From positions 1-53,132 of the forward strand of contig JBAXPX010000002.1 in NCBI GenBank assembly GCA_037132055.1: a stretch of 53,132 bases of DNA, in the 5' to 3' direction. The notes beneath the pieces were generated by a model. That model made no database searches. It was not told the DNA's origin and worked only from the letters and a program-made list of their open reading frames with translations. Below, one piece after another: positions 2,976-53,132 of the stretch. The DNA is from a bacterium. GTDB taxonomy: Bacteria; Patescibacteriota; Minisyncoccia; Phycocordibacterales; UBA9973. Each line of letters opens with the position of its first letter. The first letter of the stretch is position 1. The position numbers and the translations under genes are program-made.

Positions 2976-2985
2976 TAAACAAAAA

Positions 2986-3005
2986 CCCCTGTCAGATGAC
3001 AGGGG
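2986..3005. terminator. Bidirectional rho-independent terminator between convergent genes
   Basis: Hairpin cccctgtc-agat-gacagggg, flanked by an A-run upstream and a T-run downstream. Confidence 0.7.
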
Positions 3006-3018
3006 TTTTTGTTTTGGC

Positions 3019-12227: not shown

Positions 12228-12263
12228 AAAGAAAAAGTCAACCATATGGTTGACTTTTTCTTT
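12228..12263 (-). terminator. Perfect 36-nt palindrome, likely terminator of the 12277-12780 gene
   Basis: aaagaaaaagtcaaccat/atggttgactttttcttt; T-rich on the minus strand downstream. Confidence 0.55.
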
Positions 12264-12780: not shown

Positions 12781-12844
12781 ATTGGAATATAAAAGTCAAG
12801 CCCTAAAATAGAGTATAAAAAGGGTTAAGTAGGTTGTGTGTTTG

Positions 12845-12928
12845 TGCCGAGGGGGAGACTTGAACTCCCATGAGATTACTCTCGCTTGCTCCTAAGGCAA
12901 GTGCGTCTGCCAATTTCGCCACCTCGGC
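12845..12928 (-). tRNA. tRNA-Leu (anticodon UAG)
   Basis: Manual cloverleaf: acceptor gccgagg/cctcggc, anticodon stem cttgc/gcaag with loop cuUAGga, long variable arm, T-loop ttcaagt. No encoded CCA. Confidence 0.88.
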
Positions 12929-12976
12929 ATGTAAAAACAATATGACAATTAAAAAATTTATACAATTTTTTAATTG

Positions 12977-13049
12977 TCCGCCCTGAAGGGATCGAACCTT
13001 CGACCTTATCCTTAAGAGGGATCTGCTCTACCAGCTGAGCTAAGGGCGG
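12977..13049 (-). tRNA. tRNA-Lys (anticodon CUU)
   Basis: Manual cloverleaf: U8, D-arm gctc-agctggta-gagc, anticodon loop cuCUUaa, T-arm gaagg-ttcgatc-ccttc, acceptor ccgccct/agggcgg (C1-G72). No encoded CCA. Confidence 0.85.
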
Positions 13050-13069
13050 ATAAAAATTATTAAGTTGTG

Positions 13070-13153
13070 TGCCCAAGGTGGGAATCGAACCCACACGACC
13101 TTGCGGTCACGAAATTTTAAGTCTCGCGCGGCTACCAATTACGCCACTTGGGC
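13070..13153 (-). tRNA. tRNA-Leu (anticodon UAA)
   Basis: Acceptor gcccaag/cttgggc, anticodon loop cuUAAaa, long variable arm (gaccgcaaggtc), T-loop ttcgatt. No encoded CCA. Confidence 0.88.
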
Positions 13154-13183
13154 TTTAAAATATTATATGGCATCTCTGCCATG

Positions 13184-13255
13184 AGGCCTGGGGCGGAATT
13201 GAACCGCCGCATAGAGATTTTGCAGATCTCTGCCTTACCACTTGGCTACCAGGCC
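13184..13255 (-). tRNA. tRNA-Cys (anticodon GCA)
   Basis: Acceptor ggcctgg/ccaggcc, anticodon stem gagat/atctc with loop cuGCAaa, T-arm ggcgg-ttcaatt-ccgcc, discriminator U. Confidence 0.88.
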
Positions 13256-20365: not shown

Positions 20366-20370
20366 TGTTG

Positions 20371-20454
20371 TGCGCCGGGTAGGATTCGAACCTACGTAGC
20401 CCGAAGGGCGACTGATTTACAGTCAGTTGCAATTGACCACTCTGCCACCGACGC
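20371..20454 (-). tRNA. tRNA-Tyr (anticodon GUA)
   Basis: Acceptor gcgtcgg/ccggcgc, anticodon stem actga/tcagt with loop cuGUAaa, long variable arm (gccc-ttcg-gggc), T-arm gtagg-ttcgaat-cctac. Confidence 0.88.
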
Positions 20455-31386: not shown

Positions 31387-31914
31387 ATGAGAAAACACGA
31401 TTTTGCTTTTATAGATATAGAAACTACTGGACTCAGCGTTATAGAGCATGAGATTATCCAGATTGGTTGTGTTGTTACCGACGACAAACTTAAAATCAAA
31501 GAAGAGTTCGAGCTGAAAATAAAACCAAAAAATATTGAAAATGCCGATAAAACTGCTTTAAAAATAAACCATTATAATGAGCAAGATTGGGAAAACGCAT
31601 ACGAGCTGAAAGATGCTTTAAAAATTTTTTCCAAAAAAGTAAAAGATTGTATAATGGTCGGGCAAAATGTGGCATTTGATTCTGGGTTTTTGGAATATAA
31701 TTTTGAAAAGAATAATATAAAAAATAGCATGCATTATCATAGGCTAGATACTATATCTATCGCTTGGGCGAAGCTTCATAACAACGAAGATGTCTTGCAT
31801 TTTTCTTTACGAGAAATGTGTAAATATTTTGATATAAAAAATGACAATCCACACAGTGCGCTTTCAGACGCACGTGCTACCTATGAGCTTTACAAAAAGC
31901 TCATGAATCTATAA
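31387..31914 (+). CDS. DEDDh 3-prime-5-prime exonuclease (DnaQ/epsilon-like)
   Basis: ExoI FIDIETTGL, ExoII GQNVAFDSGFL, ExoIII HSALSDARATYELY. Confidence 0.8.
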   Translation: MRKHDFAFIDIETTGLSVIEHEIIQIGCVVTDDKLKIKEEFELKIKPKNIENADKTALKINHYNEQDWENAYELKDALKIFSKKVKDCIMVGQNVAFDSGFLEYNFEKNNIKNSMHYHRLDTISIAWAKLHNNEDVLHFSLREMCKYFDIKNDNPHSALSDARATYELYKKLMNL

Positions 31915-31944
31915 AATTCAAGAATGATGTTTTTAAGGGGTTTT

Positions 31945-31990
31945 GAGGCTGACGAGCCGAAAATTTCAGGCCTTCGGCTCTGAGAGCCTC
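31945..31990 (+). other. GC-rich two-tier hairpin in the exonuclease-mnmA spacer
   Basis: gaggct-gac-gagccgaa-aatttcaggcc-ttcggctc-tgag-agcctc. It stands out against AT-rich surroundings. It may act as a terminator, but there is no immediate T-run. Confidence 0.4.
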
Positions 31991-32058
31991 AGGCTCGATG
32001 AGATTTTTTAAGCTTCAAAAAATCCGTACCGGCAAAAATATCATTCCTGAATTTTATT

Positions 32059-33258
32059 ATGAAAAAGAAAAAAACAGCTTGTGGTGAGCAAAGTCGAACT
32101 GTATTTGTGGGCATGTCTGGAGGGGTAGACTCATCTGTCTCGGCAGCATTATTAAAAGAGCAAGGTTTTAATGTTGTTGGGGTGTTTATTAAAACATGGC
32201 ACCCAGATTTTTTAGTGTGCAATGAGGAGGAGGAGCGTCGTGATGCTATGCGAGTTTGTGCTCATTTAGATATTCCTTTTTTAACTTTTGATTTTGAAAA
32301 AATATATAAAAAAGAAGTTGCTGATTATATGATTGCTGAATATAAGCAAGGACGGACCCCAAATCCGGACGTGATGTGCAATAAAGAAATAAAGTTTGGC
32401 GCTTTTTTAAAAAAGGTGCTTGCTATGGGAGCGGACTATGTCGCGACTGGACATTATGCGCAAACATGTGACGTTTCTTCTCATTTTTCGTCCCTGCGCC
32501 CTTCCCTTGATTACAAGGGCGGGGCCCTCGGGAAGCTAAAAATGAAAAGAAATGTCACATGTTTATGTAAGGGTATTGATTCAACAAAAGATCAAAGTTA
32601 TTTTCTTTGGACATTAAAAAAAGAACAACTCTCAAAAATTCTTTTTCCAGTAGGCAATTTAGAAAAAAAACAAGTCAGAATTTTAGCAAAAAAATTTAAA
32701 TTGCCTGTGGCAGAAAAAAAAGATAGTCAGGGCATATGTTTTTTGGGGGTGGTGGATTTAAAAGAATTTTTGAAGCACTATATTAAAGAAAAAAAAGGCG
32801 ATGTAGTCATCGTTCCGAGCGAAAGCGAAAGAGGAAAGAAGCAAGTTATCGGATTTCACAATGGTGTTGTTTTTCATACTCTTGGAGAGAGACATGGTTT
32901 TACTGTAACAAAAAAAAGCCCTAACGACGCACCATATTATGTTGTTGCAAAAGATATTAAAAAAAATATTTTATATGTGTCGCAAAACATAAATAAAAAT
33001 AAAGATTATTCATACTCTTTTAAGGATAATTTTTGTCTGATATTAAATAATACGAATTGGGTTTCTGTTATTCCAGAAGAAAACAAAAATTACACCGCAC
33101 AAATACGTTATCATGGAGAATTCTTAATCTGTCAAATTAAGAAGATAAATAAAAAAGAAGTAAAAGTCGTATTTGATAGGCCTATTCTGGTAGATAGAGG
33201 TCAGTCTTGTGTTATATATGATAAAGATGTTGTTTTAGGCGGGGGAGTTATAAAATAA
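32059..33258 (+). CDS. mnmA: tRNA 2-thiouridine(34) synthase MnmA, carrying an in-frame insertion
   Basis: PP-loop GMSGGVDSSV, RTPNPDVMCN, ATGHYA, KDQSYFL, and a C-terminal beta-barrel; 399 aa. Confidence 0.9.
   Translation: MKKKKTACGEQSRTVFVGMSGGVDSSVSAALLKEQGFNVVGVFIKTWHPDFLVCNEEEERRDAMRVCAHLDIPFLTFDFEKIYKKEVADYMIAEYKQGRTPNPDVMCNKEIKFGAFLKKVLAMGADYVATGHYAQTCDVSSHFSSLRPSLDYKGGALGKLKMKRNVTCLCKGIDSTKDQSYFLWTLKKEQLSKILFPVGNLEKKQVRILAKKFKLPVAEKKDSQGICFLGVVDLKEFLKHYIKEKKGDVVIVPSESERGKKQVIGFHNGVVFHTLGERHGFTVTKKSPNDAPYYVVAKDIKKNILYVSQNINKNKDYSYSFKDNFCLILNNTNWVSVIPEENKNYTAQIRYHGEFLICQIKKINKKEVKVVFDRPILVDRGQSCVIYDKDVVLGGGVIK
32464..32562 (+). repeat. 99-nt palindromic element lying in frame inside mnmA (AT-rich 25-nt inverted arms, GC-rich hairpin core)
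   Basis: The arms acatgtgacgtttcttctcattttt (32464-32488) and aaaaatgaaaagaaatgtcacatgt (32538-32562) are complementary at 23 of 25 positions. The core contains cgccctt(32497-32503)/aagggcg(32515-32521). The segment is 33 codons with no stop. Confidence 0.6.
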
Positions 33259-42250: not shown

Positions 42251-42348
42251 CTAAAAATGAAAAACCAAGAATTCTTATACCTTCGTCCTCGAAGTCAAAG
42301 AGACAGGGGACCTGTGATGATTATGATGCTTGGTTTTTCATTTTTTAG
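42251..42348 (+). other. 98-nt long-stem structured element between rpsI and grpE (terminator and/or small repeat element)
   Basis: ctaaaaatgaaaaaccaag (42251-42269) pairs with cttggtttttcattttttag (42329-42348), 19 bp with one bulged T. The 59-nt interior carries two GC mini-hairpins (cttcg-tcct-cgaag; cagg-gga-cctg). Confidence 0.5.
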
Positions 42349-42997: not shown

Positions 42998-43030
42998 TTT
43001 ATAAAAATAAATAGTTTTAAATAACAAAAA

Positions 43031-43055
43031 TTGAGCAAGGCCTTGCCTTGCTCAA
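43031..43055. repeat. REP-like 25-nt palindrome, copy 1 (inverted relative to copies 2 and 3); also serves as the grpE terminator hairpin
   Basis: ttgagcaagg-ccttg-ccttgctcaa followed by ttttt. It is the exact reverse complement of the 25-mer at 43758 and 44002. Confidence 0.8.
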
Positions 43056-43089
43056 TTTTTGTTAAGATAATTTATGTTATGATATAAAT

Positions 43090-43761
43090 ATGTCTATAAG
43101 AAAAATAAATTTTGTAGAGGGGGAATATTATCATATTTATAATCGGGGTAATAGTAAACAAAAAATTTTTAATGACAAAGAAGATTATTTAAGATTTATT
43201 TCTTTACTTTATATTTCTAATTCAAATGAAGGATTTAGATTTTTTAACACATCTAGAAATATGAGTATCTATGAAATAGATAAAGGTAGTCCTTTAGTTA
43301 GTATTGGAGCGTATTGTTTAATGCCAAATCATTTTCATATATTAATAACTCAAAAAAAGAAAAATGGTATCAGTCAATTTATGCAAAAATTAAGTACCGG
43401 ATATTCAATGTACTATAATAAAAAATATGAAAGGACTGGCAGTCTTTTTGAAGGTAAATTCAAATCACAGCATTTAGGTACAGATAAATATTTAAAATAT
43501 TTGTTTTCTTACATTCATTTGAATCCAGTAAAATTAATTCAAAACGACTGGAAGGAGAAGGGGATTAAAAATAAAAAAGATGTTATTGATTATTTAGAGA
43601 AGTATTCTTATTCAAGTTATTTAGATTATTTAAATTTTGAATCAAAAAGGCCAGAGTTCAATATATTGACTCCAAATTTTTTCCCAGAATATTTCCCAAC
43701 AAAAGATAAATTTCAAAAAGAAATCTTTGAATGGCTTTCATATGACATTATGCAAAGTTGA
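43090..43761 (+). CDS. REP-associated tyrosine transposase (RAYT) / IS200-like Y1 HUH transposase
   Basis: YHIYNRGN, YCLMPNHFHILI (HUH = HFH), and catalytic Tyr region YIHLNPV; 223 aa. Confidence 0.85.
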   Translation: MSIRKINFVEGEYYHIYNRGNSKQKIFNDKEDYLRFISLLYISNSNEGFRFFNTSRNMSIYEIDKGSPLVSIGAYCLMPNHFHILITQKKKNGISQFMQKLSTGYSMYYNKKYERTGSLFEGKFKSQHLGTDKYLKYLFSYIHLNPVKLIQNDWKEKGIKNKKDVIDYLEKYSYSSYLDYLNFESKRPEFNILTPNFFPEYFPTKDKFQKEIFEWLSYDIMQS

Positions 43762-43782
43762 GCAAGGCAAGGCCTTGCTCAA
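43758..43782. repeat. REP-like palindrome, copy 2 (overlaps the RAYT stop codon), followed by a degenerate half-copy at 43783-43797
   Basis: ttgagcaagg-caagg-ccttgctcaa. The TGA stop lies at 43759-43761, inside the left arm. Confidence 0.8.
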
Positions 43783-44001
43783 CTTTGCCTTGCTCGAATC
43801 TTGAAGGCCATAGTATAAGGGTAGAGTATTATATACATTGATAAACATTGATATTAAAAATAATATTGTTTAGTAATGTTTTACAGATTCTTTTAAAGAA
43901 AATGCATTTCAAACAAAGTGTTTTTAGAAATTAGTTTCAAAATATAAAAAATGAAAGTAAAAACGGAGGCGATACCTTTGTTTTTTTTCTATGAACAATG
44001 T

Positions 44002-44026
44002 TTGAGCAAGGCAAGGCCTTGCTCAA
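44002..44026. repeat. REP-like palindrome, copy 3 (direct repeat of copy 2)
   Basis: 25-mer identical to 43758-43782, lying 92 nt upstream of the giant ORF's first ATG. Confidence 0.8.
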
Positions 44027-44117
44027 GTAGAGTAAATTAATTTTTTAAGTTATTAACATTTTTTAGTGAAAAAAGTTGAATATATAATGATATAATTTAT
44101 GTAGTAAAAAATATTAA

Positions 44118-47100
44118 ATGAGAAAATTTCTCCAAAGAATAATTAAAAAGTTCAGAAGTTCTAATATTTGGCTTATAGATAAAAAGAATCTGAGTTCTTT
44201 TTATCGTATTCGTGTCCGTGATAAAAAAATCATTACAAATTTTAAAATTACTAACTTAAAAAATCAATTAACAATTAAATATAAAATTATGCCCAGCATC
44301 ATTTCACTAAATCAAATGAAAAACTTATTAAAAAAAATAAATAAAGAAAGAAAAAATATTTTTTTCTTTTTAAAACAAATTAAGAAAATAAAAAGAACAC
44401 AGCTTGTCGGACTTGTTTTGATTTTTTCAGTAGTTTCTTTTTTTTATAATCCAAAACCAGTTCATGCTGCTTGTGCTCTTTCTGGAACCATAGCTACGAG
44501 TTACAACTGGGCAGGTTGTGCCGGAGAAGCGACCATCAGCGGTAGTGTGACTTTCGCAGCAGGAACTCATAATCTAGGTGCTACTAATTTGACCATCAAC
44601 AGTGGTGGGACACTTATCCCTGCGCCTTCTAGTACTACTGTAAATGGTGCGACGGGAGTGACAATAAACACTACCGGGAATATTACAGTGGCTTCTGGTG
44701 GAACTATCAATGGAAATGGCCAAGGATACACTGGAAGAAGTTATGCTTCTGGTAGTCCACTTGGTCAGGGCTATGGTGAAGGTGGTGGAACAAGAGGTTA
44801 TTATGGTGGAGCTGGTGGAGCTCATGGTGGAGCTGGTGGAAAAGGAAATGCTAGTAGTGTGAGAAATACAACTACTTATGGTAGTGCAACTAATCCAGTT
44901 AGCTTGGGTTCTGCTTCAGGGGCATCGAATGGTACTAACATATTCAATCCTGGTGGTGGAGCAATAAAATTAAATGCATCGGGAACTGTCACTATCAACG
45001 GAACAGTTTCTGCTAATGGAAATTCGGGGACTGGAACAAGTGCTGGTGGAGCGGGAGGAAGTGTTTGGATAGTTGCTGGGACTTTGACGGGTTCTAATTC
45101 GGCAACTATTTCGGCTAATGGTGGAGATGGAGCAGGAACTTATAGTACTAATGCTGGTGGAGGAGGTGGAGGAGGAAGAATTAGTTTACAAACTTCTGGC
45201 ACAGATACTTATGCTGGATCAATAATAGTTGAAGGAGGTTTGGGGCTAGAAGGAGGAGAAGCAGGGACACTAGAGAGAACTGTTGGAACTCCGGGTGATA
45301 TTATTATTGCAGCTGGGAGTACTGTTACTTGGACAAGGGGTGAACACACTTTTCATGATTTAACAATTCAATCAACTGGTGTCCTTACGACCGGTGAAGC
45401 TGAAGCTGCAGGAGGAGGCAATAATTCCAATGGCCCATTTATTGGTGGAGGACCTGGTCCCGGATTAAGTGGTGATAAGGGTGGAGGTGGTGGAGGGCAC
45501 GTTGGAGCTGGTGGAACTGAAGGTGGCGGAACAAGGGCAGGAGTTGGTGGTAGTGCATACAATAGTGATGGACTTCAAGTGACACAGCCAACAGATATGG
45601 GATCAGCTGGTGGAGGTTCTGCGCAAGATGGTCTTGGTAGTTATGGAGGAGGAGCAATAAAATTAACTATAACGGGGACTTTGACAGTAAATGGTAAAAT
45701 TTTAGCTGATGGTCAATCCAATGGAACTAGCGGTGGAGGATCAGGAGGAAGTATTTGGATAAATGCGCCTACGGGCACAGTGAATTCTACCGGTGGAGAA
45801 TTTTCTGCACATGGTGGAGTTGCTGGAACTGGTACAGCCAACAATGGAGGCGGCGGAGGATCAGGAGGAAGAATTGCTTTTAATGCGGGAACAAAAAATC
45901 TCAGTGCTATTACTGTTGACGTCGCAGGTGGTACGGGAGTAAATAATGGTGGAGACGGAACTGTCTCGGGGTTGCTTTATTCATCGATCACTTCTCCAAC
46001 GTCTGCAGCTAGAAATACTTTTACATCAGTAACAGGAACTGCGGCAGACTATAGTGGGGCGACACTTGGTTATGTTGATGTTTCTATTTATAATGGAAGC
46101 CAATATTGGAACGGTTCTAGTTTTAATCAAGCTAGTGAATATTGGTTGAGAGCGACAGGAACTTCTTCTTGGAGTTATGCGGTGAGTGGACTTACGAGTC
46201 CGGGTGTTACCTTGACAGTACACTCGAGAGCGAAATCTGGAAGAGGAGTTGAATCTTTTTTTGAAACACCTGGAACAGGAGTAACTTTTAATTTAGATAC
46301 TGTTGCGCCGACCCTAGCTACTGTCACAGCTATACCAACTGCTACAAATGACAACACTCCAAACTATATTTTTTCTTCCACAGAAGCCGGAACCATAACT
46401 TATGGTGGATCATGTAGTTCTGCCACAACTTCAGCAACATCTGGATCAAATACTGTTACTTTCAATACACTTACTGATGGAACATACAGCAACTGTACAG
46501 TGACAGTTACTGATGCAGCGACAAATGCTTCGTCTGCACTTTCTGTGCCTACGTTTACTGTTGATACAGTTGCGCCTACCGCTCCCATCGCAGTCACATT
46601 TACTGCAACAGGTGGAAATGTTTTAGCAAATACTTTAAATTCTACAAATACAAACTTTACAGCAGGTGCAACTATAACTGCAGCAGATGCAACTGGTGGA
46701 ACAGCAGAACTTTTGAAAGGTGGTGCATCTTTTAGTCCAGCTATAATGGATAGCAGTATTTCTGCTGGAGATACGACTGTGACATTTAACGCAGGACTTG
46801 CAAGTAATGCAGCCGTGCAGACAGCATTTGCAAGTGGAGCAGCACTTTCAGTAAGACTTTGCGACCTCGCAGGAAACTGCACAACGAGTTCTGTATCAAA
46901 CCCTACTATTACTGTCGACTACATAGCACCAACAAATCAAGATTCTGTATTAACGGCAGATGCTATGTTTAGATCGAGTGGCACAGTGACGATAGCAAGC
47001 TCAGGAAATGCTACAAACAATATTTGGATCGCGCCACTTGGCACGACTAGTTTTACAGCAGGTTCTACAATGACGACAGCAGGAGGAACATCTACTACTA

Positions 47101-50100
47101 TTCTTTCTCCTTCAGCTGAGGGAACTTATCGTTTGTATGTCATCGATGCAGCAGGGAACGTATCAGCTGCATCTACACACACAGTCATAGTAGACTCGAC
47201 TGCACCTACACCAAGTGCACCGACAAATACTGCCCAGAGATTAAATAGTGAAAGTCTTTCTAACTCAACTGTTCAGATAAATGAAGCGGGGACGATATAT
47301 TTAGTAAAGACAGGTACTGGACCAGTAGCGGCTCTTCCTGATACTGCGAATTTAACAAATATGGTTATCAGTAATTCACCATCAAATTATACTTTCTCTG
47401 GTGGAACATATAATTATAATGGTGTTACTGTGCTCAGCACTGTAACAAGTGTCACAGTAACTCCGACAGGAGCAGGGACTATCACAGTAAATGGAATGAC
47501 AGTGACATCAGGTCAAGCATCAGGAGCAATTGCTCTTACTGCTGGAGTAGAAAGAGTGATCGATGTAGTGGCTACAGAGTCAGGAAAAAATCCAAGGATT
47601 TATACGATTAGGATAATAAGAGGTCCGACGTTAGGTACAAGTTGGCAAGGTGGTAAAGTTGCTTATGTTAATGGGTCTGGGGGGTTTATAGTAACGGACA
47701 ATGACATAACTAGTGCAGACAATGCTTCTTGTTCTGCTGTACACCCAATTGGACAAGGACAAGGAGCAGGTACAGGATCAGCAATAGGTACAGGAAAGGC
47801 AAACACAGATGCACTTGTAGCACTTTGCGGAGCAGGTCCAAACTCTGCTACTGTTGCTCATGCTTTAGTATTAAATGGTTATAGTGATTGGTATGTACCA
47901 TCATCTGGTGAATTCATTACTATGTCATTAAATAAAAACGCAATTAATGCTAATTTTGTCGATTCCACTAATTACTGGAGTTCAACGACTTCCGGCTGGT
48001 TGTCCTCTGTTACTTGTGATATAAATGGGTATTCTTCTTGTGGAGGAAGTGGTTATAATGTAATTAAGCCTGGTCGTGCCATTCGAGACATCACAATAAC
48101 TCCAACTCTTCCAACTCCAACATTCAGTCTAAGTGGAGCAGTTGCTCATGGTTCAACTGTAACAATCACATCTGCTGGAGCCGATGCAATATATTACACT
48201 ACTGATGGTAGTACTCCTACGACGTCATCAACGAATCAAGCGACGACACCACTTGTAATAAATGGACCTGTGACTGTAAAAGCTTTGGCAGTGAAAGCTA
48301 ACTATTATAACGCTTCTAGTCTTGCAACCTTTACTGAAATATTTGATTGGAATAATGAAATCAATGTTGATCACACTGCATTCATAGGCAAATCATCTGC
48401 TGTTGCAGATATTCCATATAGAGTTACATTACCAGCAGGATTGGTAGATGGAGTTTATGACATAATCGGAGTTGACTTGGTTGGAAATACATCAAATGCA
48501 CTTGCTGGCTGGCTGACGGTGGATAATACTGCTCCAACCTTGGCTACGGTCACAGCAGTCACAAACCCCACAAACGACAATACTCCAAATTATATTTTTT
48601 CTTCCACAGAAGCAGGAACTATATCATATGCTGGATCATGTAGTTCTGCCACAACTTCAGCAACGTCTGGATCAAATACTATTACTTTCACTACACTTAC
48701 TGATGGAACATACAGCAACTGTACAGTGACAGTGACTGACGCAGCGACAAATACTTCGTCTCTACTTTCTGTGCCTTCGTTTACAGTTGATACTGCTGGT
48801 CCAACAGTCACCCTTACCTCTAATGATCCTGATCCAACAAATGGAACTATAAATGTTAGAGCGACATTCGGTGAATCAACCACAAACTTTGTAGTAGGAG
48901 ATATTACAGTCACAAATGGTACTGCAGGTAATTTTACAGGTAGTGGAATGGTATATGATTTTGAAATTACTCCAACTACTGACGGAACAGTATCAGTCGA
49001 TGTCAATGCAGGAGTAGCGACTGATGCAGCAGGAAATCCTAACTCTGCAGCAACACAATTGACGAGATTGTATGATAGTATTAACCCTACTTCAACTATC
49101 ACACCTATATGTAGCACTCCGGGCAACGGATGTACTCCTGCAGGAGAAGCTCAAAATCCACCAGGATCATATGGGGTGAGGTCAATAGTAGGTAGCGCAT
49201 CAGATGCTACAGGTGGAGCTGGAGTTAGTACGGTAGAAATTTCTATAAAAGATACAAATGCAAATGTTTGGTATAGTGGCACATCTTTCTCTGATGTGAG
49301 CGAGACATACCTTCCAGTCACGACAGGCACGACTACGTGGAGTTATAATTCCTCTGGAATATCACTTGAAATCGGACATGTCTATCAAGTAAATGTGAGA
49401 GCGACAGATGGAGCAGGGAACGTAGAAAGTCCCGTGCAAACTCTTTCATTTGAATTTACAAACTCTCCGCCGACTGTTTCAAATGTATCTGCATCACAAA
49501 ATTCAAGTGGAGTAGTAAGTGTGTCTTATAATGTTACAGATAATGAATCTACACAAACTTCAAATTCTCTATTCTATTGGTCAGGTTCTACTCTCAGTGG
49601 AAATATTTCAAGTGCAGTGACATCATTGACTACATCAAATGTAACAAGTTTCCCAACTTCTGGAACTATTTTGATAGATGATGAAATTATAAACTATGCA
49701 AGTAAGTCAGGAAATGTATTGCAAGGTCTCACAAGGGGATCGGCAATAAATTATCCTACTACTTCAAATACAACGACACCGTTTGCGCACTCTTCAGGAG
49801 CACAAATATTTATTTATGCTACTTCTGCTACGGGAGATATTGGTTTGTTGAATAAAGGTACAGGGAAAAATATAACATGGACTGCAAGTGCTGATGCAGA
49901 TGGTTATGAAAATATAAATGAAATTATAAAAGTTGTTGCAAACGATGGATCTACAGGTTCGATGGTTGGATCTTCGCTGTCTTCTATATTTATTCTTGAC
50001 GCAGCGAAACCAACGATAAATGGCACAACACTTTTGATAAATGACACTGATGCTGATGTGATAAGTTTATCACCTAATATAACTCTCAAACTTCAAAATA

Positions 50101-53100
50101 TAACTGGGCATCCTGTTGACGAAAATATTTTTGTGCAATTCTCAAGAGATGGGGGAACTACTTGGTATGGAGCAAACGCAGATGGAACTCTCTCGGGATC
50201 AGGGACAATGGGGACAGGATTTTCTTCTAGCTTGACTGTCATCGGCGCGCTTTCGTGGCCTTGGACTATGACCTCAAGATCAGAAACCATAACTGTAAAA
50301 ATAACAGACAGCTATGGAAACTATGCAGAAGACACAAACACTGTCGGGTATAATGCTCCACCAGAATTCAATGTCGACTATCCTTCGACTAGTGCAGGTG
50401 GGCTCAGTGTTGTTCAAGTAGCTGACAAAAATGATGCGAATTTTGGAAAAGTAAAAATAGAATATTCTATTCGTGATACTGACACAGACGTGGACACAGT
50501 TCCAGGGTTTGTGACTCCTACATTTAGTTACAATACTGGTAGTGGGTGGAATACGATAAATGACGTGGATATTGTTTATGCAACTGCGCCAACTGGAGGA
50601 CAAATAATAGATCAAAATACTGATGGAGTTCGTGATAATAAAGTTTCAACTTCTTCATACTATATCTATACAGCATACTGGACACCGACAACTAATATCG
50701 AAACTGCAACTGCACAATTTAAACTCTCGATCAGTGACTTGGAAACAAATAACAGCACTACGACTAAAGAAATTTCTAATTTACTAATAGATTCAAAAAA
50801 ACCAGTGGTTACTCCGATCACGTTTGACGCGGGAATAGCAGGATCACCAGAGTCTGCTTTGGTTACCATACCTATGCCTACTGATTTATCTAGTGTTCAA
50901 TATAAAATCAAAGATGATTCTTCAAATTCTAATCCACAAGATACTGGTTGGAAAAGTATAAACGAAAGTACAACCATACCGTGGACGTTTGATTCTGTTT
51001 TGGGAATAAAAACATTAAAGTATCAATTCAGGGATGCTTATGAAAATACTACAAACGAAGTGTCCACTTCAACTCTTACCCCCGTCGACTCTAATTCATT
51101 TGTAGTACAAGATGCATCAAATCCGAGAATTCCTTCGTATGATATGTATATCAGTTGGAAGGCGATAACCGATGCAACGGGGTTTGATTCGTATAAATTA
51201 GAATTTGCAACTTCTACTGACAATTCATTCTTCTCAAGTTATCAATCTATCGGGACCGGGATGGATAGTTCTACTACAAATTATTTTGTTCACAGGAGTC
51301 TAGATCCGACAAAATATTATAGATATCGATTAGGAGTAGTAGGGACCAATGGAAATATTTCTGTTCGCTCAGGAGGATATGTCACTGCTAAGCCAGATGG
51401 AATTCAGAATTTTGGTGAAGGTAGTGGAGGGGGTAGTGTGGCTGCTGCTTCTCAAGTAGAAAATGTTGTTCCAGTCCAAGGTTCAGATAAAAATGTTACT
51501 GTTACTTATAAACTCACAGACCCATCTTTGTCGAACAAAACTGATCCTTTGTATGAAGCAAGAGTTTTCTATAATATCGGTATAACATTGCCGACAAATG
51601 CAGATGCTGGAGGAAATATAAAAGTATCTGATGCTTCAAAACTTAAATCTTCAGGATATATTCAAATAAATAATGAAGTTATAAAATACACTGGAAAATC
51701 TGAAAATACCTTAACAGGGATAACGAGAGGAACTTGGCCTACAGATATAACGACTAACCGTGTCACCAGACAAAATCCGTTATTATTTGCAGGTACACCA
51801 GTATGGGTAATGGCTTCTACGACAGCCATAAATACTATTGCAAACAATAGTATTGCTTATGGTCAAAATGGAACTATTACATGGACTACATACGATGAAT
51901 CAGCACTAGCTGGCGGAGTTTACAATAATGTTGGCATCAGAGTTCTAGTACACGACAATCAAGATGCTGGTTCTGGACCACTTTCGAGTCAGAGTGATTA
52001 TTCAGAAAACGGAATATTAAATATTTTGGATTTAAATACTCCGACGATTGGATTTGACACGACGCATAGTTCTGGTTTGGAAAGCGTAACTCCTGCCGTA
52101 TTTACTATAAACTTGAATAGAATTTATCCGAGTGCTGTGAGTGTAGACTATACTGTTGCCGGTACTGCAGTAGGTGGTGGAACAGACTATACACTTGTAA
52201 ATGGGACAGCGACAATAACAGCAGGACAAACTACGACGAGCTTGAGTGCTGTGATTGTGAACCATAATCAAGTAAGACCAAACAAAACAATAATTATAAC
52301 TCTTTCAAATCCTGTGAATGCAACTTTGGGAGCTAATAGTGTTCATACTTATACAATAATAAATCACGACACAAGTACTACACCTCCAACAGTCACTATC
52401 GTTCCGCCAAGTGTAATGCACGTACTCAGTGGAACTGTTTGGGCAGATCAAGATCCGGGCGCAACAGCTACGGATACAATAGATGGTGATCTTACTTCTA
52501 GTATAGTTGTTACTGGTGCTCCGTCTATGAATACTCCAAGCACAACTCCGTATACTGTCACATATTCTGCTACAAATAGTTCAGGGCAGACGGGAACTGC
52601 AACTCGTGAAGTTTATGTCGATGACGCAAATGCTGCAACATTTGAAATAACAGCGATTCAAAGTACTGGTGGTTTGATCTCACCAGAAAATGCTACGACT
52701 GTGCAAGTTCATTCAGATCAGGCTTATACTATTACTCCAGACGAATGGTATAAAGTTGACAGTATTACAATAGACACAAATCTTCCACTTGCGCCAACTG
52801 CAGGAGTAAATCATTACACATTTACAGATGTTACTGCGCCTCACACGATCACAGCAGCATTTTCTGCATTGCCTGATACAACTCCACCAGTTATCCTCAT
52901 AACAGGACCAACGACAGTCCAACTCACTGTCGGTGATACATATAGTGACCAAGGTGCAACAGCTTCAGACACATATCTTGGAGTTACTACTCCATTGACT
53001 GATTCGATTGAAGTATTTAGTAATGTAAATAATTTAATTCCAGGAACTTATCAAGTCAGATATACAGTCTCCGACTCCGCCGGCAACACAGCCACTGCCA

Positions 53101-53132
53101 CAAGAACAGTAGTAGTTTCTTACAATGAAACT
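44118..53132 (+). CDS. Giant membrane-anchored multi-domain surface protein (adhesin-like), 5-prime part only; at least 3005 codons and open at the window end
   Basis: Hand translation of the frame starting at 44118 (in-frame TAA at 44115-44117) shows no stop through 53132. Alternative in-frame ATGs lie at 44289 and 44316. TM/signal segment is TQLVGLVLIFSVVSFFY...VHA. Gly-rich repeats, many Ig-like modules, and Calx-beta-like and DUF5011-like modules follow. This ORF is absent from the supplied ORF track. Confidence 0.9.
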   Translation, partial: MRKFLQRIIKKFRSSNIWLIDKKNLSSFYRIRVRDKKIITNFKITNLKNQLTIKYKIMPSIISLNQMKNLLKKINKERKNIFFFLKQIKKIKRTQLVGLVLIFSVVSFFYNPKPVHAACALSGTIATSYNWAGCAGEATISGSVTFAAGTHNLGATNLTINSGGTLIPAPSSTTVNGATGVTINTTGNITVASGGTINGNGQGYTGRSYASGSPLGQGYGEGGGTRGYYGGAGGAHGGAGGKGNASSVRNTTTYGSATNPVSLGSASGASNGTNIFNPGGGAIKLNASGTVTINGTVSANGNSGTGTSAGGAGGSVWIVAGTLTGSNSATISANGGDGAGTYSTNAGGGGGGGRISLQTSGTDTYAGSIIVEGGLGLEGGEAGTLERTVGTPGDIIIAAGSTVTWTRGEHTFHDLTIQSTGVLTTGEAEAAGGGNNSNGPFIGGGPGPGLSGDKGGGGGGHVGAGGTEGGGTRAGVGGSAYNSDGLQVTQPTDMGSAGGGSAQDGLGSYGGGAIKLTITGTLTVNGKILADGQSNGTSGGGSGGSIWINAPTGTVNSTGGEFSAHGGVAGTGTANNGGGGGSGGRIAFNAGTKNLSAITVDVAGGTGVNNGGDGTVSGLLYSSITSPTSAARNTFTSVTGTAADYSGATLGYVDVSIYNGSQYWNGSSFNQASEYWLRATGTSSWSYAVSGLTSPGVTLTVHSRAKSGRGVESFFETPGTGVTFNLDTVAPTLATVTAIPTATNDNTPNYIFSSTEAGTITYGGSCSSATTSATSGSNTVTFNTLTDGTYSNCTVTVTDAATNASSALSVPTFTVDTVAPTAPIAVTFTATGGNVLANTLNSTNTNFTAGATITAADATGGTAELLKGGASFSPAIMDSSISAGDTTVTFNAGLASNAAVQTAFASGAALSVRLCDLAGNCTTSSVSNPTITVDYIAPTNQDSVLTADAMFRSSGTVTIASSGNATNNIWIAPLGTTSFTAGSTMTTAGGTSTTILSPSAEGTYRLYVIDAAGNVSAASTHTVIVDSTAPTPSAPTNTAQRLNSESLSNSTVQINEAGTIYLVKTGTGPVAALPDTANLTNMVISNSPSNYTFSGGTYNYNGVTVLSTVTSVTVTPTGAGTITVNGMTVTSGQASGAIALTAGVERVIDVVATESGKNPRIYTIRIIRGPTLGTSWQGGKVAYVNGSGGFIVTDNDITSADNASCSAVHPIGQGQGAGTGSAIGTGKANTDALVALCGAGPNSATVAHALVLNGYSDWYVPSSGEFITMSLNKNAINANFVDSTNYWSSTTSGWLSSVTCDINGYSSCGGSGYNVIKPGRAIRDITITPTLPTPTFSLSGAVAHGSTVTITSAGADAIYYTTDGSTPTTSSTNQATTPLVINGPVTVKALAVKANYYNASSLATFTEIFDWNNEINVDHTAFIGKSSAVADIPYRVTLPAGLVDGVYDIIGVDLVGNTSNALAGWLTVDNTAPTLATVTAVTNPTNDNTPNYIFSSTEAGTISYAGSCSSATTSATSGSNTITFTTLTDGTYSNCTVTVTDAATNTSSLLSVPSFTVDTAGPTVTLTSNDPDPTNGTINVRATFGESTTNFVVGDITVTNGTAGNFTGSGMVYDFEITPTTDGTVSVDVNAGVATDAAGNPNSAATQLTRLYDSINPTSTITPICSTPGNGCTPAGEAQNPPGSYGVRSIVGSASDATGGAGVSTVEISIKDTNANVWYSGTSFSDVSETYLPVTTGTTTWSYNSSGISLEIGHVYQVNVRATDGAGNVESPVQTLSFEFTNSPPTVSNVSASQNSSGVVSVSYNVTDNESTQTSNSLFYWSGSTLSGNISSAVTSLTTSNVTSFPTSGTILIDDEIINYASKSGNVLQGLTRGSAINYPTTSNTTTPFAHSSGAQIFIYATSATGDIGLLNKGTGKNITWTASADADGYENINEIIKVVANDGSTGSMVGSSLSSIFILDAAKPTINGTTLLINDTDADVISLSPNITLKLQNITGHPVDENIFVQFSRDGGTTWYGANADGTLSGSGTMGTGFSSSLTVIGALSWPWTMTSRSETITVKITDSYGNYAEDTNTVGYNAPPEFNVDYPSTSAGGLSVVQVADKNDANFGKVKIEYSIRDTDTDVDTVPGFVTPTFSYNTGSGWNTINDVDIVYATAPTGGQIIDQNTDGVRDNKVSTSSYYIYTAYWTPTTNIETATAQFKLSISDLETNNSTTTKEISNLLIDSKKPVVTPITFDAGIAGSPESALVTIPMPTDLSSVQYKIKDDSSNSNPQDTGWKSINESTTIPWTFDSVLGIKTLKYQFRDAYENTTNEVSTSTLTPVDSNSFVVQDASNPRIPSYDMYISWKAITDATGFDSYKLEFATSTDNSFFSSYQSIGTGMDSSTTNYFVHRSLDPTKYYRYRLGVVGTNGNISVRSGGYVTAKPDGIQNFGEGSGGGSVAAASQVENVVPVQGSDKNVTVTYKLTDPSLSNKTDPLYEARVFYNIGITLPTNADAGGNIKVSDASKLKSSGYIQINNEVIKYTGKSENTLTGITRGTWPTDITTNRVTRQNPLLFAGTPVWVMASTTAINTIANNSIAYGQNGTITWTTYDESALAGGVYNNVGIRVLVHDNQDAGSGPLSSQSDYSENGILNILDLNTPTIGFDTTHSSGLESVTPAVFTINLNRIYPSAVSVDYTVAGTAVGGGTDYTLVNGTATITAGQTTTSLSAVIVNHNQVRPNKTIIITLSNPVNATLGANSVHTYTIINHDTSTTPPTVTIVPPSVMHVLSGTVWADQDPGATATDTIDGDLTSSIVVTGAPSMNTPSTTPYTVTYSATNSSGQTGTATREVYVDDANAATFEITAIQSTGGLISPENATTVQVHSDQAYTITPDEWYKVDSITIDTNLPLAPTAGVNHYTFTDVTAPHTITAAFSALPDTTPPVILITGPTTVQLTVGDTYSDQGATASDTYLGVTTPLTDSIEVFSNVNNLIPGTYQVRYTVSDSAGNTATATRTVVVSYNET
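46300..46565 (+). repeat. Intragenic repeat A (Ig-like module ...NDNTPNYIFSSTEAGTITYGGSCSSATTSATSGSNTVTFNTLTDGTYSNCTVTVTDAATN...)
   Basis: About 90 percent identical by eye to 48526-48791, offset 2226 nt (742 codons, in frame). Identical runs of 33 and 42 nt. Confidence 0.85.
48526..48791 (+). repeat. Intragenic repeat B (second copy of the same Ig-like module)
   Basis: See repeat A. Shared runs are tggatcatgtagttctgccacaacttcagcaac and tacacttactgatggaacatacagcaactgtacagtgacagt. Confidence 0.85.

Follow-up and report, generated by a model that had tools for sequence, protein, structure and literature searches.

The gene mnmA in the 53,132-nucleotide (nt) stretch of contig JBAXPX010000002.1 analysed here (hereafter the window) carries in its reading frame a palindrome, at 32462-32564, that belongs to a dispersed repeat family, designated family 1, with 90 non-redundant copies. 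We consider it probable that this palindrome is a copy of a low-copy, non-autonomous, selfish repeat resembling the Rickettsia palindromic elements (RPEs) and that it is translated as a loop extension of its host protein. A preliminary description based on the window alone had proposed an RPE-like in-frame element of this kind, and that interpretation is supported: in-frame family 1 copies occur in at least nine unrelated gene families with two peptide readings, and MnmA orthologs free of any insert exist.

The host open reading frame (ORF) encodes a full-length MnmA by Pfam, with PF03054, PF20259 and PF20258 all present, and its best match in the Protein Data Bank is Escherichia coli MnmA (2DER, E = 4.6e-82). 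The domain and structure alignments are interrupted exactly across residues ~137-168. At the insertion position the window protein has 35 residues, E. coli MnmA has 12, in line with the dozen or so that the preliminary description gave as usual for orthologs, and the shortest Patescibacteria orthologs have ~7. Codon 136 begins at position 32464, and from there 33 codons run without a stop, as first described. The inverted repeat itself consists of 27-nt arms (32462-32488 and 32538-32564) that are complementary at 25/27 positions (93%) and separated by 49 nt; the 25-nt arms with 23/25 complementarity noted earlier (32464-32488 and 32538-32562) form their inner portion. An inner 12-nt repeat (32498-32509 and 32514-32525) lies between them. 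The host gene and the parts of the palindrome, all given on the forward strand, are as follows.

32059-33258, forward strand: mnmA ORF of 399 amino acids (aa), the host gene, intact, with the PP-loop motif SGGVDSS and both catalytic-type Cys motifs.
32462-32564, forward strand: the palindrome in full (103 nt), a forward-oriented family 1 copy covering residues ~135-169 (QTCDVSSHFSSLRPSLDYKGGALGKLKMKRNVTCL).
32462-32473, forward strand: left outer arm (AAACATGTGACG), site- and lineage-specific, apparently resident loop codons turned into palindrome.
32474-32488, forward strand: left inner arm (TTTCTTCTCATTTTT), semi-conserved in the family with the consensus CTTCTTCCAATTTTT.
32489-32537, forward strand: GC-rich imperfect-hairpin core, 49 nt.
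32488-32504, forward strand: core flanking block TCGTCCCTGCGCCCTTC, invariant in the family.
32521-32537, forward strand: core flanking block GGGGCCCTCGGGAAGCT, invariant in the family save for G32524 in the window copy (consensus A).
32504-32509 and 32514-32519, forward strand: apical stem in which CCCTTG pairs with CAAGGG, covarying among copies.
32538-32552, forward strand: right inner arm (AAAAATGAAAAGAAA), with a family-typical C.A mismatch against the left arm.
32553-32564, forward strand: right outer arm (TGTCACATGTTT), complementing the left outer arm.

The folding potential of this segment stands far above that of shuffled controls. As RNA, the 99-mer from 32464 to 32562 has a minimum free energy of -54.5 kcal/mol against -22.3 +/- 3.0 kcal/mol for 200 dinucleotide shuffles, none of which was as stable (z = -10.6), and the element is the most stable 110-nt stretch of the window. 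GC content over 40 nt also reaches its maximum there (0.70, against ~0.33 for the window as a whole), in keeping with the self-folding, GC-rich core in AT-rich DNA that had been noted. An AlphaFold model of MnmA has a mean pLDDT (predicted local distance difference test score) of 58.9, falling below 50 across residues 131-186, insert included; at this low confidence the arms are modelled as beta-strands 135-143 and 162-170 of an extended beta-hairpin. The insert may form a surface loop of MnmA, a tentative assignment given a model too poor for reliable loop placement. The element is not tRNA-like by ARAGORN and has no match in Rfam 15, where sub-threshold generic miRNA-hairpin matches reach at most 28 bits against cut-offs of at least 74; a scan of the window with Rfam at gathering and E-value thresholds returned only tRNAs and meaningless miRNA-like hairpins.

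No second copy was found within the window by exact search, by a search allowing three mismatches or by a covariance model with its filters off, which reported the one copy at 115 bits on the forward strand (32457-32568) and 41 bits on the reverse strand. Related genomes carry many. The core pattern CGTCCCTGYGCCC-N18-34-CCCTCGGGAAGC retrieved 26 loci from 19 genome records in species-representative genomes, several with two or three loci, and a similar pattern found 76 loci in metagenomes. A covariance model, R1, was built from 29 copies; the 90 non-redundant copies come from the core pattern and the covariance model combined, and all score between 70 and 121 bits with R1. The 26 species-representative loci all derive from Patescibacteria-type or unlabelled metagenome-assembled genomes (MAGs), save one labelled Burkholderiales, and there is likewise one exception among the 90 copies. 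The Burkholderiales-labelled record (JAMPXW010000001.1, locus L030) is a 277-kb contig with its family 1 copy in a Patescibacteria-type uvrC, and is probably a misbinned or mislabelled MAG. Family 1 had no matches among the viral contigs of IMG/VR, which rules out a phage-borne element, and it appears to be confined to one clade within the Patescibacteria (Nomurabacteria and Paceibacteria-type genomes).

The family is predominantly genic. When a genic copy is defined as one inside a long ORF with at least 25 codons on each side, 62 of the 90 copies (69%) qualify, the remaining 28 being intergenic, at contig edges or less than 25 codons from an ORF end. The host genes, which Pfam confirmed as encoding MnmA, a UvrD-like helicase, UvrC, KsgA, an S-adenosylmethionine (SAM) methyltransferase, TGT, Dus, PGK and LeuRS, carry the following numbers of copies.

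mnmA: one site, 16 copies, 7 forward and 9 reverse.
UvrD-like helicase gene: 10 copies.
leuS: two sites, 8 and 5 copies.
uvrC: two sites, 6 and 2 copies.
ksgA: 4 copies.
SAM methyltransferase gene: 3 copies.
dus: 3 copies.
tgt: 2 copies.
pgk: 1 copy.

The helicase site frequently holds two or three different inserts in tandem.

Reading-frame usage is sharply restricted. The 62 genic copies comprise 40 in forward orientation, 39 of them in one phase, and 22 in reverse orientation, all in one phase. Only two of the six possible reading frames are used, while two more are stop-free in many copies yet essentially unused, a restriction unlikely to arise by chance because it holds across 11 host sites. 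The forward reading is (S)SNF-SSLRPSPEYRGGTLGKLK-IER, or SSLRPSRITEWDPREAQNRK in a core variant 2 nt shorter, and the reverse reading is FNF-ELPEGPxPVxxGRAQGRK-IGR. Both are hydrophilic and rich in Gly, Pro, Lys and Arg, which suggests that only hydrophilic readings survive; the open frames in turn point to translation of the element as a loop extension of ~28 residues.

The peptide is nevertheless not the level at which the element is conserved. Read as its reverse complement, the same core yields the reverse-orientation peptide FELPEGPxPV..GRAQGRK; ~35 core positions are invariant in 29/29 copies regardless of frame or orientation, and in all copies the blocks TCGTCCCTGYGCCCTTC and GGGACCCTCGGGAAGCTC vary little or not at all. 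Because the same nucleotides are kept whichever strand is translated, and also in copies outside genes, the constraint is on the nucleic acid, DNA or RNA, and not on the peptide. Around these fixed blocks, the apical stem of 5-6 base pairs covaries (CCCTTG/CAAGGG, CCCCTG/CAGGGG, CCTCTG/CAGAGG, TCTCGG/CCGAG and others), and the arms, whose length varies between 11 and 34 nt, are semi-conserved over their inner ~15 nt (CTTCTTCCAATTTT / AAAATTGAAAGAAG). The outer arms are wholly different among copies yet paired within each copy. Across 69 distinct copies, 93.9% of arm cells are paired against 79.7% in shuffles, changes on both sides of a pair number 323 cells against 90 expected, and one-sided (G-U) changes hardly occur. 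The covariation score is 0.36 for true partners and at most 0.11 for partners slid out of register, and pairs at arm positions 19 and beyond are almost all Watson-Crick.

Comparison of MnmA proteins shows how readily the site changes its occupant. Among 120 homologs that are 58-72% identical to the window protein, and whose organism names, where given, are all Patescibacteria, Nomurabacteria or Paceibacteria-type or simply 'bacterium', the stretch from ATGHYA to LxKGxDxxKDQSYF is short or absent in 12 (for example AQNKKNNLLKGKD), while the other 108 have long segments of several recurring types. The preliminary description had taken equally long segments in orthologs as a sign against its own reading, and formally they are abundant; those checked at the DNA level, however, are themselves elements of the same kind, either family 1 in one or the other orientation or one of two further families, which strengthens the RPE-like interpretation. 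One such type, 'FELPEGPAPVLRGRAQGRK', is the reverse-complement reading of the window core at the same mnmA site in the DNA of relatives. Forward and reverse mnmA copies are interleaved among hosts whose flanks are ~85-87% identical, and orientation was accordingly rejected as a clade marker. In one pair of mnmA copies of opposite orientation (L004, reverse; L079, forward), the left arm is identical at 20/20 positions when read in element orientation, indicating that the whole palindrome and not the core alone is the unit inverted or replaced. The closest proteins of opposite orientation (P0004, forward; P0020, reverse) are 89% identical in amino acids outside the insert, with flanking DNA ~77-93% identical, and differ across the entire cassette, with sharp boundaries, only between GHYAQ and K(G/S)ID.

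Further exchanges are apparent between loci and between families. Rare apical variants are common to two loci of one genome in two cases, leuS and mnmA in MFTY01 (L013 and L014) and leuS and pgk in DAHVYC01 (L022 and L028), a pattern that indicates copying or gene conversion between loci within a genome. At the exact mnmA site, other genomes carry two further palindromic families, each in both orientations, one at L108:10367-10495 and L109:7926-8051 and the other at L110:4691-4813 and L111:630-752; they encode the peptides LLNGLAGVGDPENRGPEK / FLSGPRFSGSLSQPDH and NFSGLLHPAGGTFPVQN / NFEGGRFRPQGGVMPKNF, respectively. All three mnmA-site families begin with ..TTTTTC and end with ..TCAAAA(T/G) beside A/T arms. 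Other families also occupy the same leuS, uvrC, ksgA and helicase sites in other genomes, and, to judge from these sequences, the insertion sites are hot spots common to several families. Recurrent in-frame insert peptides are likewise seen at the hot spots of family 1, in helicase, uvrC and ksgA genes (L005, L009, L033, L092 and others) and in leuS (L031 and L084); TLGRSDGDGQRKFSAENFRGE and LFHGSHSNLNVV..IAYAEKSS are examples.

A second dispersed element, family U, lies in the intergenic DNA directly upstream of mnmA (31911-32057). Its conserved ~95 nt have the form ATGTTTTTAAGGGGTTT-[variable GC hairpin]-AATTTCAGGATTTTTTAAGCTTCAAAAAATCCGTACCGGCAAAAATAT and are closed by variable complementary outer arms, folding into a long stem with two inner hairpins that has no Rfam match. 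A 26-nt seed recovers 14 distinct copies among the examined loci besides that of the window, which has an extra ~33-nt insertion, and a 40-nt block is 100% identical in ~11 loci by blastn. Family U is often found just upstream of mnmA, and elsewhere too.

The length of the mnmA segment is more constant than that of the palindrome it contains. From GHY to KDQ, the segment measures 43 aa in 12/16 family 1 copies, both orientations among them, and 42-56 aa in the rest. The detectable palindrome, however, spans 81-113 nt in the same 16 copies and does not lengthen with the insert; over the family as a whole the modal palindrome is 79-81 nt. The shortest empty allele has 15 aa in this segment, so the net addition is ~28 codons (84 nt), roughly the basic unit with 15-nt arms. 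The earlier notion of an insertion of 99 nt or 33 codons is correct as to an extra segment and too large as to its size. Since the segment stays constant while the palindrome varies, the outer arms seem to be resident sequence that was turned into palindrome, and in the uvrC copy the left outer arm indeed overlies native K-N-L codons that are conserved in empty alleles. Decay of one long ancestral palindrome is excluded as the source of the arms, which differ among copies yet remain complementary within each. That the outer arms are merely part of the mobile unit is partly true, in that the arms follow the orientation of the core and the same arms occur at leuS sites 1 and 2, but this leaves the constant 43-aa segment unexplained.

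We propose the following sequence of events, which we infer from these patterns. A basic unit of ~80 nt, made up of an invariant, asymmetric, GC-rich hairpin core of ~50 nt and semi-conserved A/T-rich arms of ~15 nt, lies in the short ATGHYA-to-LxKGxD segment of the MnmA N-terminal domain; it would stay in the mRNA and be translated as a loop extension of ~28 residues, persisting because permissive sites tolerate readings that are in frame and hydrophilic. The strong hairpin, after settling there, would trigger local events at the DNA level. As the simplest mechanism, self-templated synthesis, by fold-back or template switching, could turn neighbouring resident codons into extra stem, which would explain outer arms that are site-specific yet complementary; the cassette may also flip in place, hence both orientations at one site; and the cores of different loci within one genome may be homogenised.

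Several observations weigh against a selfish repeat. No transposase, terminal-repeat consensus or target-site duplication was found, and no mobilisation route is therefore demonstrated: the flanking direct repeat is 0-3 nt in 87/88 copies, close to the shuffled expectation, and no transposase was evident beside the seven copies outside long ORFs whose neighbourhoods were inspected by eye, without a whole-genome search. The copy number (26 copies in 19 genome records by the strict pattern, and one in the 53-kb window) is lower than usual for a selfish repeat that is actively spreading. Conservation of the core exceeds that of the adjoining essential-gene DNA, in genomes whose MnmA proteins are only ~65-75% identical, and this could reflect function at the level of the host rather than selection at the level of the element. 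Translation of the element is a prediction from its open frames. Finally, 58/88 copies keep the C.A mismatch at arm position 8, and of the element's two strands the reverse one folds better in 87/88 (mean -52.5 against -40.9 kcal/mol); simple homogenisation of a palindrome predicts neither the mismatch nor the asymmetry, and together they hint at a specific single-stranded form.

A rival explanation is a functional cis-acting signal, which would be either a protein-bound or RNase-cut hairpin co-regulating a set of genes for nucleic-acid handling (mnmA, tgt, dus, ksgA, leuS, uvrC and the UvrD-like helicase gene) or a DNA-level site, such as a cruciform or protein-binding site, under host selection. 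We regard such a signal as unlikely. The invariance of the core across divergent genomes whatever the frame, the few copies at recurring sites, the strand-specific folding with its conserved mismatch, the UNCG-type apical loops of two short variants (L010 and L017) and a host list made up almost wholly of RNA- or DNA-acting enzymes all speak for it, although the last may just mirror the gene content of small genomes. Yet the copies run both ways with respect to the host transcript (40 forward, 22 reverse), 28/90 copies are not clearly genic, the better-folding strand is in the mRNA for only ~1/3 of genic copies, no Rfam family matches, and orthologs readily do without the element or have unrelated families in its place. 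A contrast of G-U with A-C pairs shows that the folding asymmetry tracks the strand of the element and not the sense of the host mRNA, and the mnmA mRNA of the window carries the less favourable strand. A selected mRNA hairpin was rejected on these grounds as the primary explanation, and the RNA-level regulatory hairpin that the preliminary description had offered as its alternative is disfavoured.

Less likely still is an adaptive, lineage-specific protein insertion that gives MnmA and other enzymes a new surface for binding nucleic acid or a partner, the palindrome being incidental. Use of two among at least four often stop-free frames, both with hydrophilic Gly/Pro/Lys/Arg-rich products, would fit this explanation, as would the beta-hairpin of the low-confidence model and the 43-aa length at which the mnmA segment is held; but the two orientations encode unrelated peptides at one site, conservation is at the nucleotide level and extends to copies outside genes, the arms are exact DNA complements, and close relatives have other families or no insert. 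The insert may secondarily have been exapted. An intervening sequence, intron-like and removed by RNA processing before translation or else excised from the DNA, is very improbable. Its strong, conserved hairpin has defined boundaries, and bacteria of the Candidate Phyla Radiation (CPR) carry many rRNA insertions, but 62/62 clearly genic copies are open and restricted in phase, which would be needless were the element removed. The C-to-A variant of the window copy, which would give TAG in the reverse reading, occurs in no reverse genic copy examined, Rfam offers no ribozyme or intron match, and 99 nt is too small for known self-splicing introns. As for a chance hairpin or an assembly artefact, nothing beyond the single copy in the window speaks for it, and the likelihood is negligible: it is already refuted by the shuffles (z = -10.6, with 0/200 as stable) and by recurrence of the same core in ~100 independent assemblies.

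Family 1 can be set against several known kinds of element. Like RPEs, it consists of short palindromic repeats lying in frame in unrelated housekeeping genes of a reduced, AT-rich genome, with a conserved peptide, neither an ORF nor a transposase of its own, and the presumed status of tolerated selfish DNA. According to the summary of Ogata et al. (2000/2002) in PMC10969869, the first-described RPEs are ~150 bp, and the same summary gives 44 integrations in R. conorii. Family 1 differs in phylum and sequence, in its basic unit of ~80 nt and its fewer copies per genome, in the concentration of conservation in a GC-rich core between self-complementary, site-specific outer arms, and in its occurrence in both orientations at one orthologous site, with several families per hot spot. 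By analogy, then, family 1 behaves like an RPE in function; we make no claim of membership in RPE-1 to RPE-10, and the host appears to be one of the Patescibacteria from its MnmA relatives and record titles. MITEs of prokaryotes (miniature transposable elements with inverted repeats) such as Correia, ERIC and QMITE resemble it in being small and non-coding, in forming hairpins and in lying at times within genes as in-frame fusions; long stems in transcripts could serve RNase III as substrates, which has been shown for the Correia elements (PMC10969869). MITEs are, however, derived from insertion sequences (IS) and defined by conserved terminal inverted repeats and target-site duplications (PMC10969869). 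In family 1, by contrast, conservation is lowest at the termini, direct repeats are not consistent and there is no known parent IS; with its outermost arm positions varying around a semi-conserved inner ~15 nt and its flanking repeat near the shuffled expectation, a classical MITE was rejected.

Other resemblances concern the core. Repetitive extragenic palindromic (REP) sequences and bacterial interspersed mosaic elements (BIMEs), associated with RAYT proteins, and the elements derived from IS200/IS605 have an imperfect GC-rich hairpin and strand asymmetry, with no terminal repeats or target-site duplications, and like family 1 suggest a recognition step specific for single strands. REPs are extragenic and present in hundreds of copies, whereas family 1 is 69% intragenic with 1-3 copies per genome, so that a classical REP was also rejected. 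The mobile GC clusters and palindromic GC-rich repeats of AT-rich organelle genomes, for example the GC clusters of yeast mitochondria with their in-frame copies in VAR1, are GC-rich hairpins in a very AT-rich small genome; they too are scattered and occasionally in frame, and may spread by way of host replication. They differ in being organellar, shorter and usually accompanied by a short flanking duplication, and we know of no description of long self-complementary A/T-rich arms in them. For the outer arms, a parallel is the quasipalindrome template switch (Ripley; the Lovett laboratory, in E. coli), in which imperfect inverted repeats are reportedly perfected by copying from arm to arm. This process predicts double changes from one Watson-Crick pair to another, no G-U intermediates and no net change in length, as seen in family 1. 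It is known from ordinary loci and not as a systematic feature of a repeat family, and its role here is one that we infer from the pattern of arm changes.

Additional features of the window lie outside mnmA. An intergenic hairpin at 42253-42345 (z = -4.1) has a GC-richer centre of 53 nt between A/T-rich arms of 20 nt that are 95% complementary; its architecture is that of the repeat families, and no relatives were found among the examined loci. The palindrome TTGAGCAAGGC(N3)GCCTTGCTCAA occurs three times (43027-43059, 43754-43786 and 43998-44030) in and after a very AT-rich stretch (GC 0.25, 43-44 kb), flanking the ORF 43090-43761 and upstream of a giant ORF; these palindromes may be terminators or operators. 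The giant ORF (44118-53132, forward strand) has at least 3005 codons, runs off the end of the window and has a GC content of 0.38-0.47, above that of the rest of the window; its cadherin-like, Fn3-associated/CHB_HEX_C, Calx-beta and bacterial Ig-like surface domains point to a giant surface protein. Two perfect 18-bp inverted repeats, 2977-3014 (AAACAAAAACCCCTGTCA..) and 12228-12263 (AAAGAAAAAGTCAACCAT..), look like terminators. A cluster of four tRNA genes (Leu-tag, Lys-ctt, Leu-taa and Cys-gca; 12844-13255) and a tRNA-Tyr gene (20370-20454), all on the reverse strand, are ordinary.

In-frame selfish repeats in essential genes are, to our knowledge, textbook matter for Rickettsia only, and we are not aware that elements of this kind have been reported from CPR bacteria. 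Their occurrence in Patescibacteria as well would establish a phenomenon that recurs among reduced, AT-rich genomes and would explain part of the length variation and of the 'insertions' in CPR housekeeping proteins. It is also a source of annotation and alignment artefacts, as a common insert peptide joins unrelated proteins (56 host proteins were merged by clustering here), while the constant segment with its variable palindrome offers material from wild genomes in which palindromisation by template switching and inversion in place can be studied. Should the core prove functional for the host, a recognition system as yet unknown in CPR bacteria would be implied. More tentatively, the three or more mnmA-site families, the other recurrent inserts and family U might together constitute an undescribed class of bacterial hairpin element, needing no transposase-type ends, with a conserved, strand-asymmetric core recognised in single-stranded form, and copied or swapped among a few common hot spots in essential genes, where fold-back synthesis would rebuild and lengthen the stem from the adjoining sequence and flip the cassette. 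If so, this class would act as a resident engine that remodels the loops of CPR housekeeping proteins, and its spread from cell to cell might be linked to the uptake of single-stranded DNA by naturally competent bacteria.

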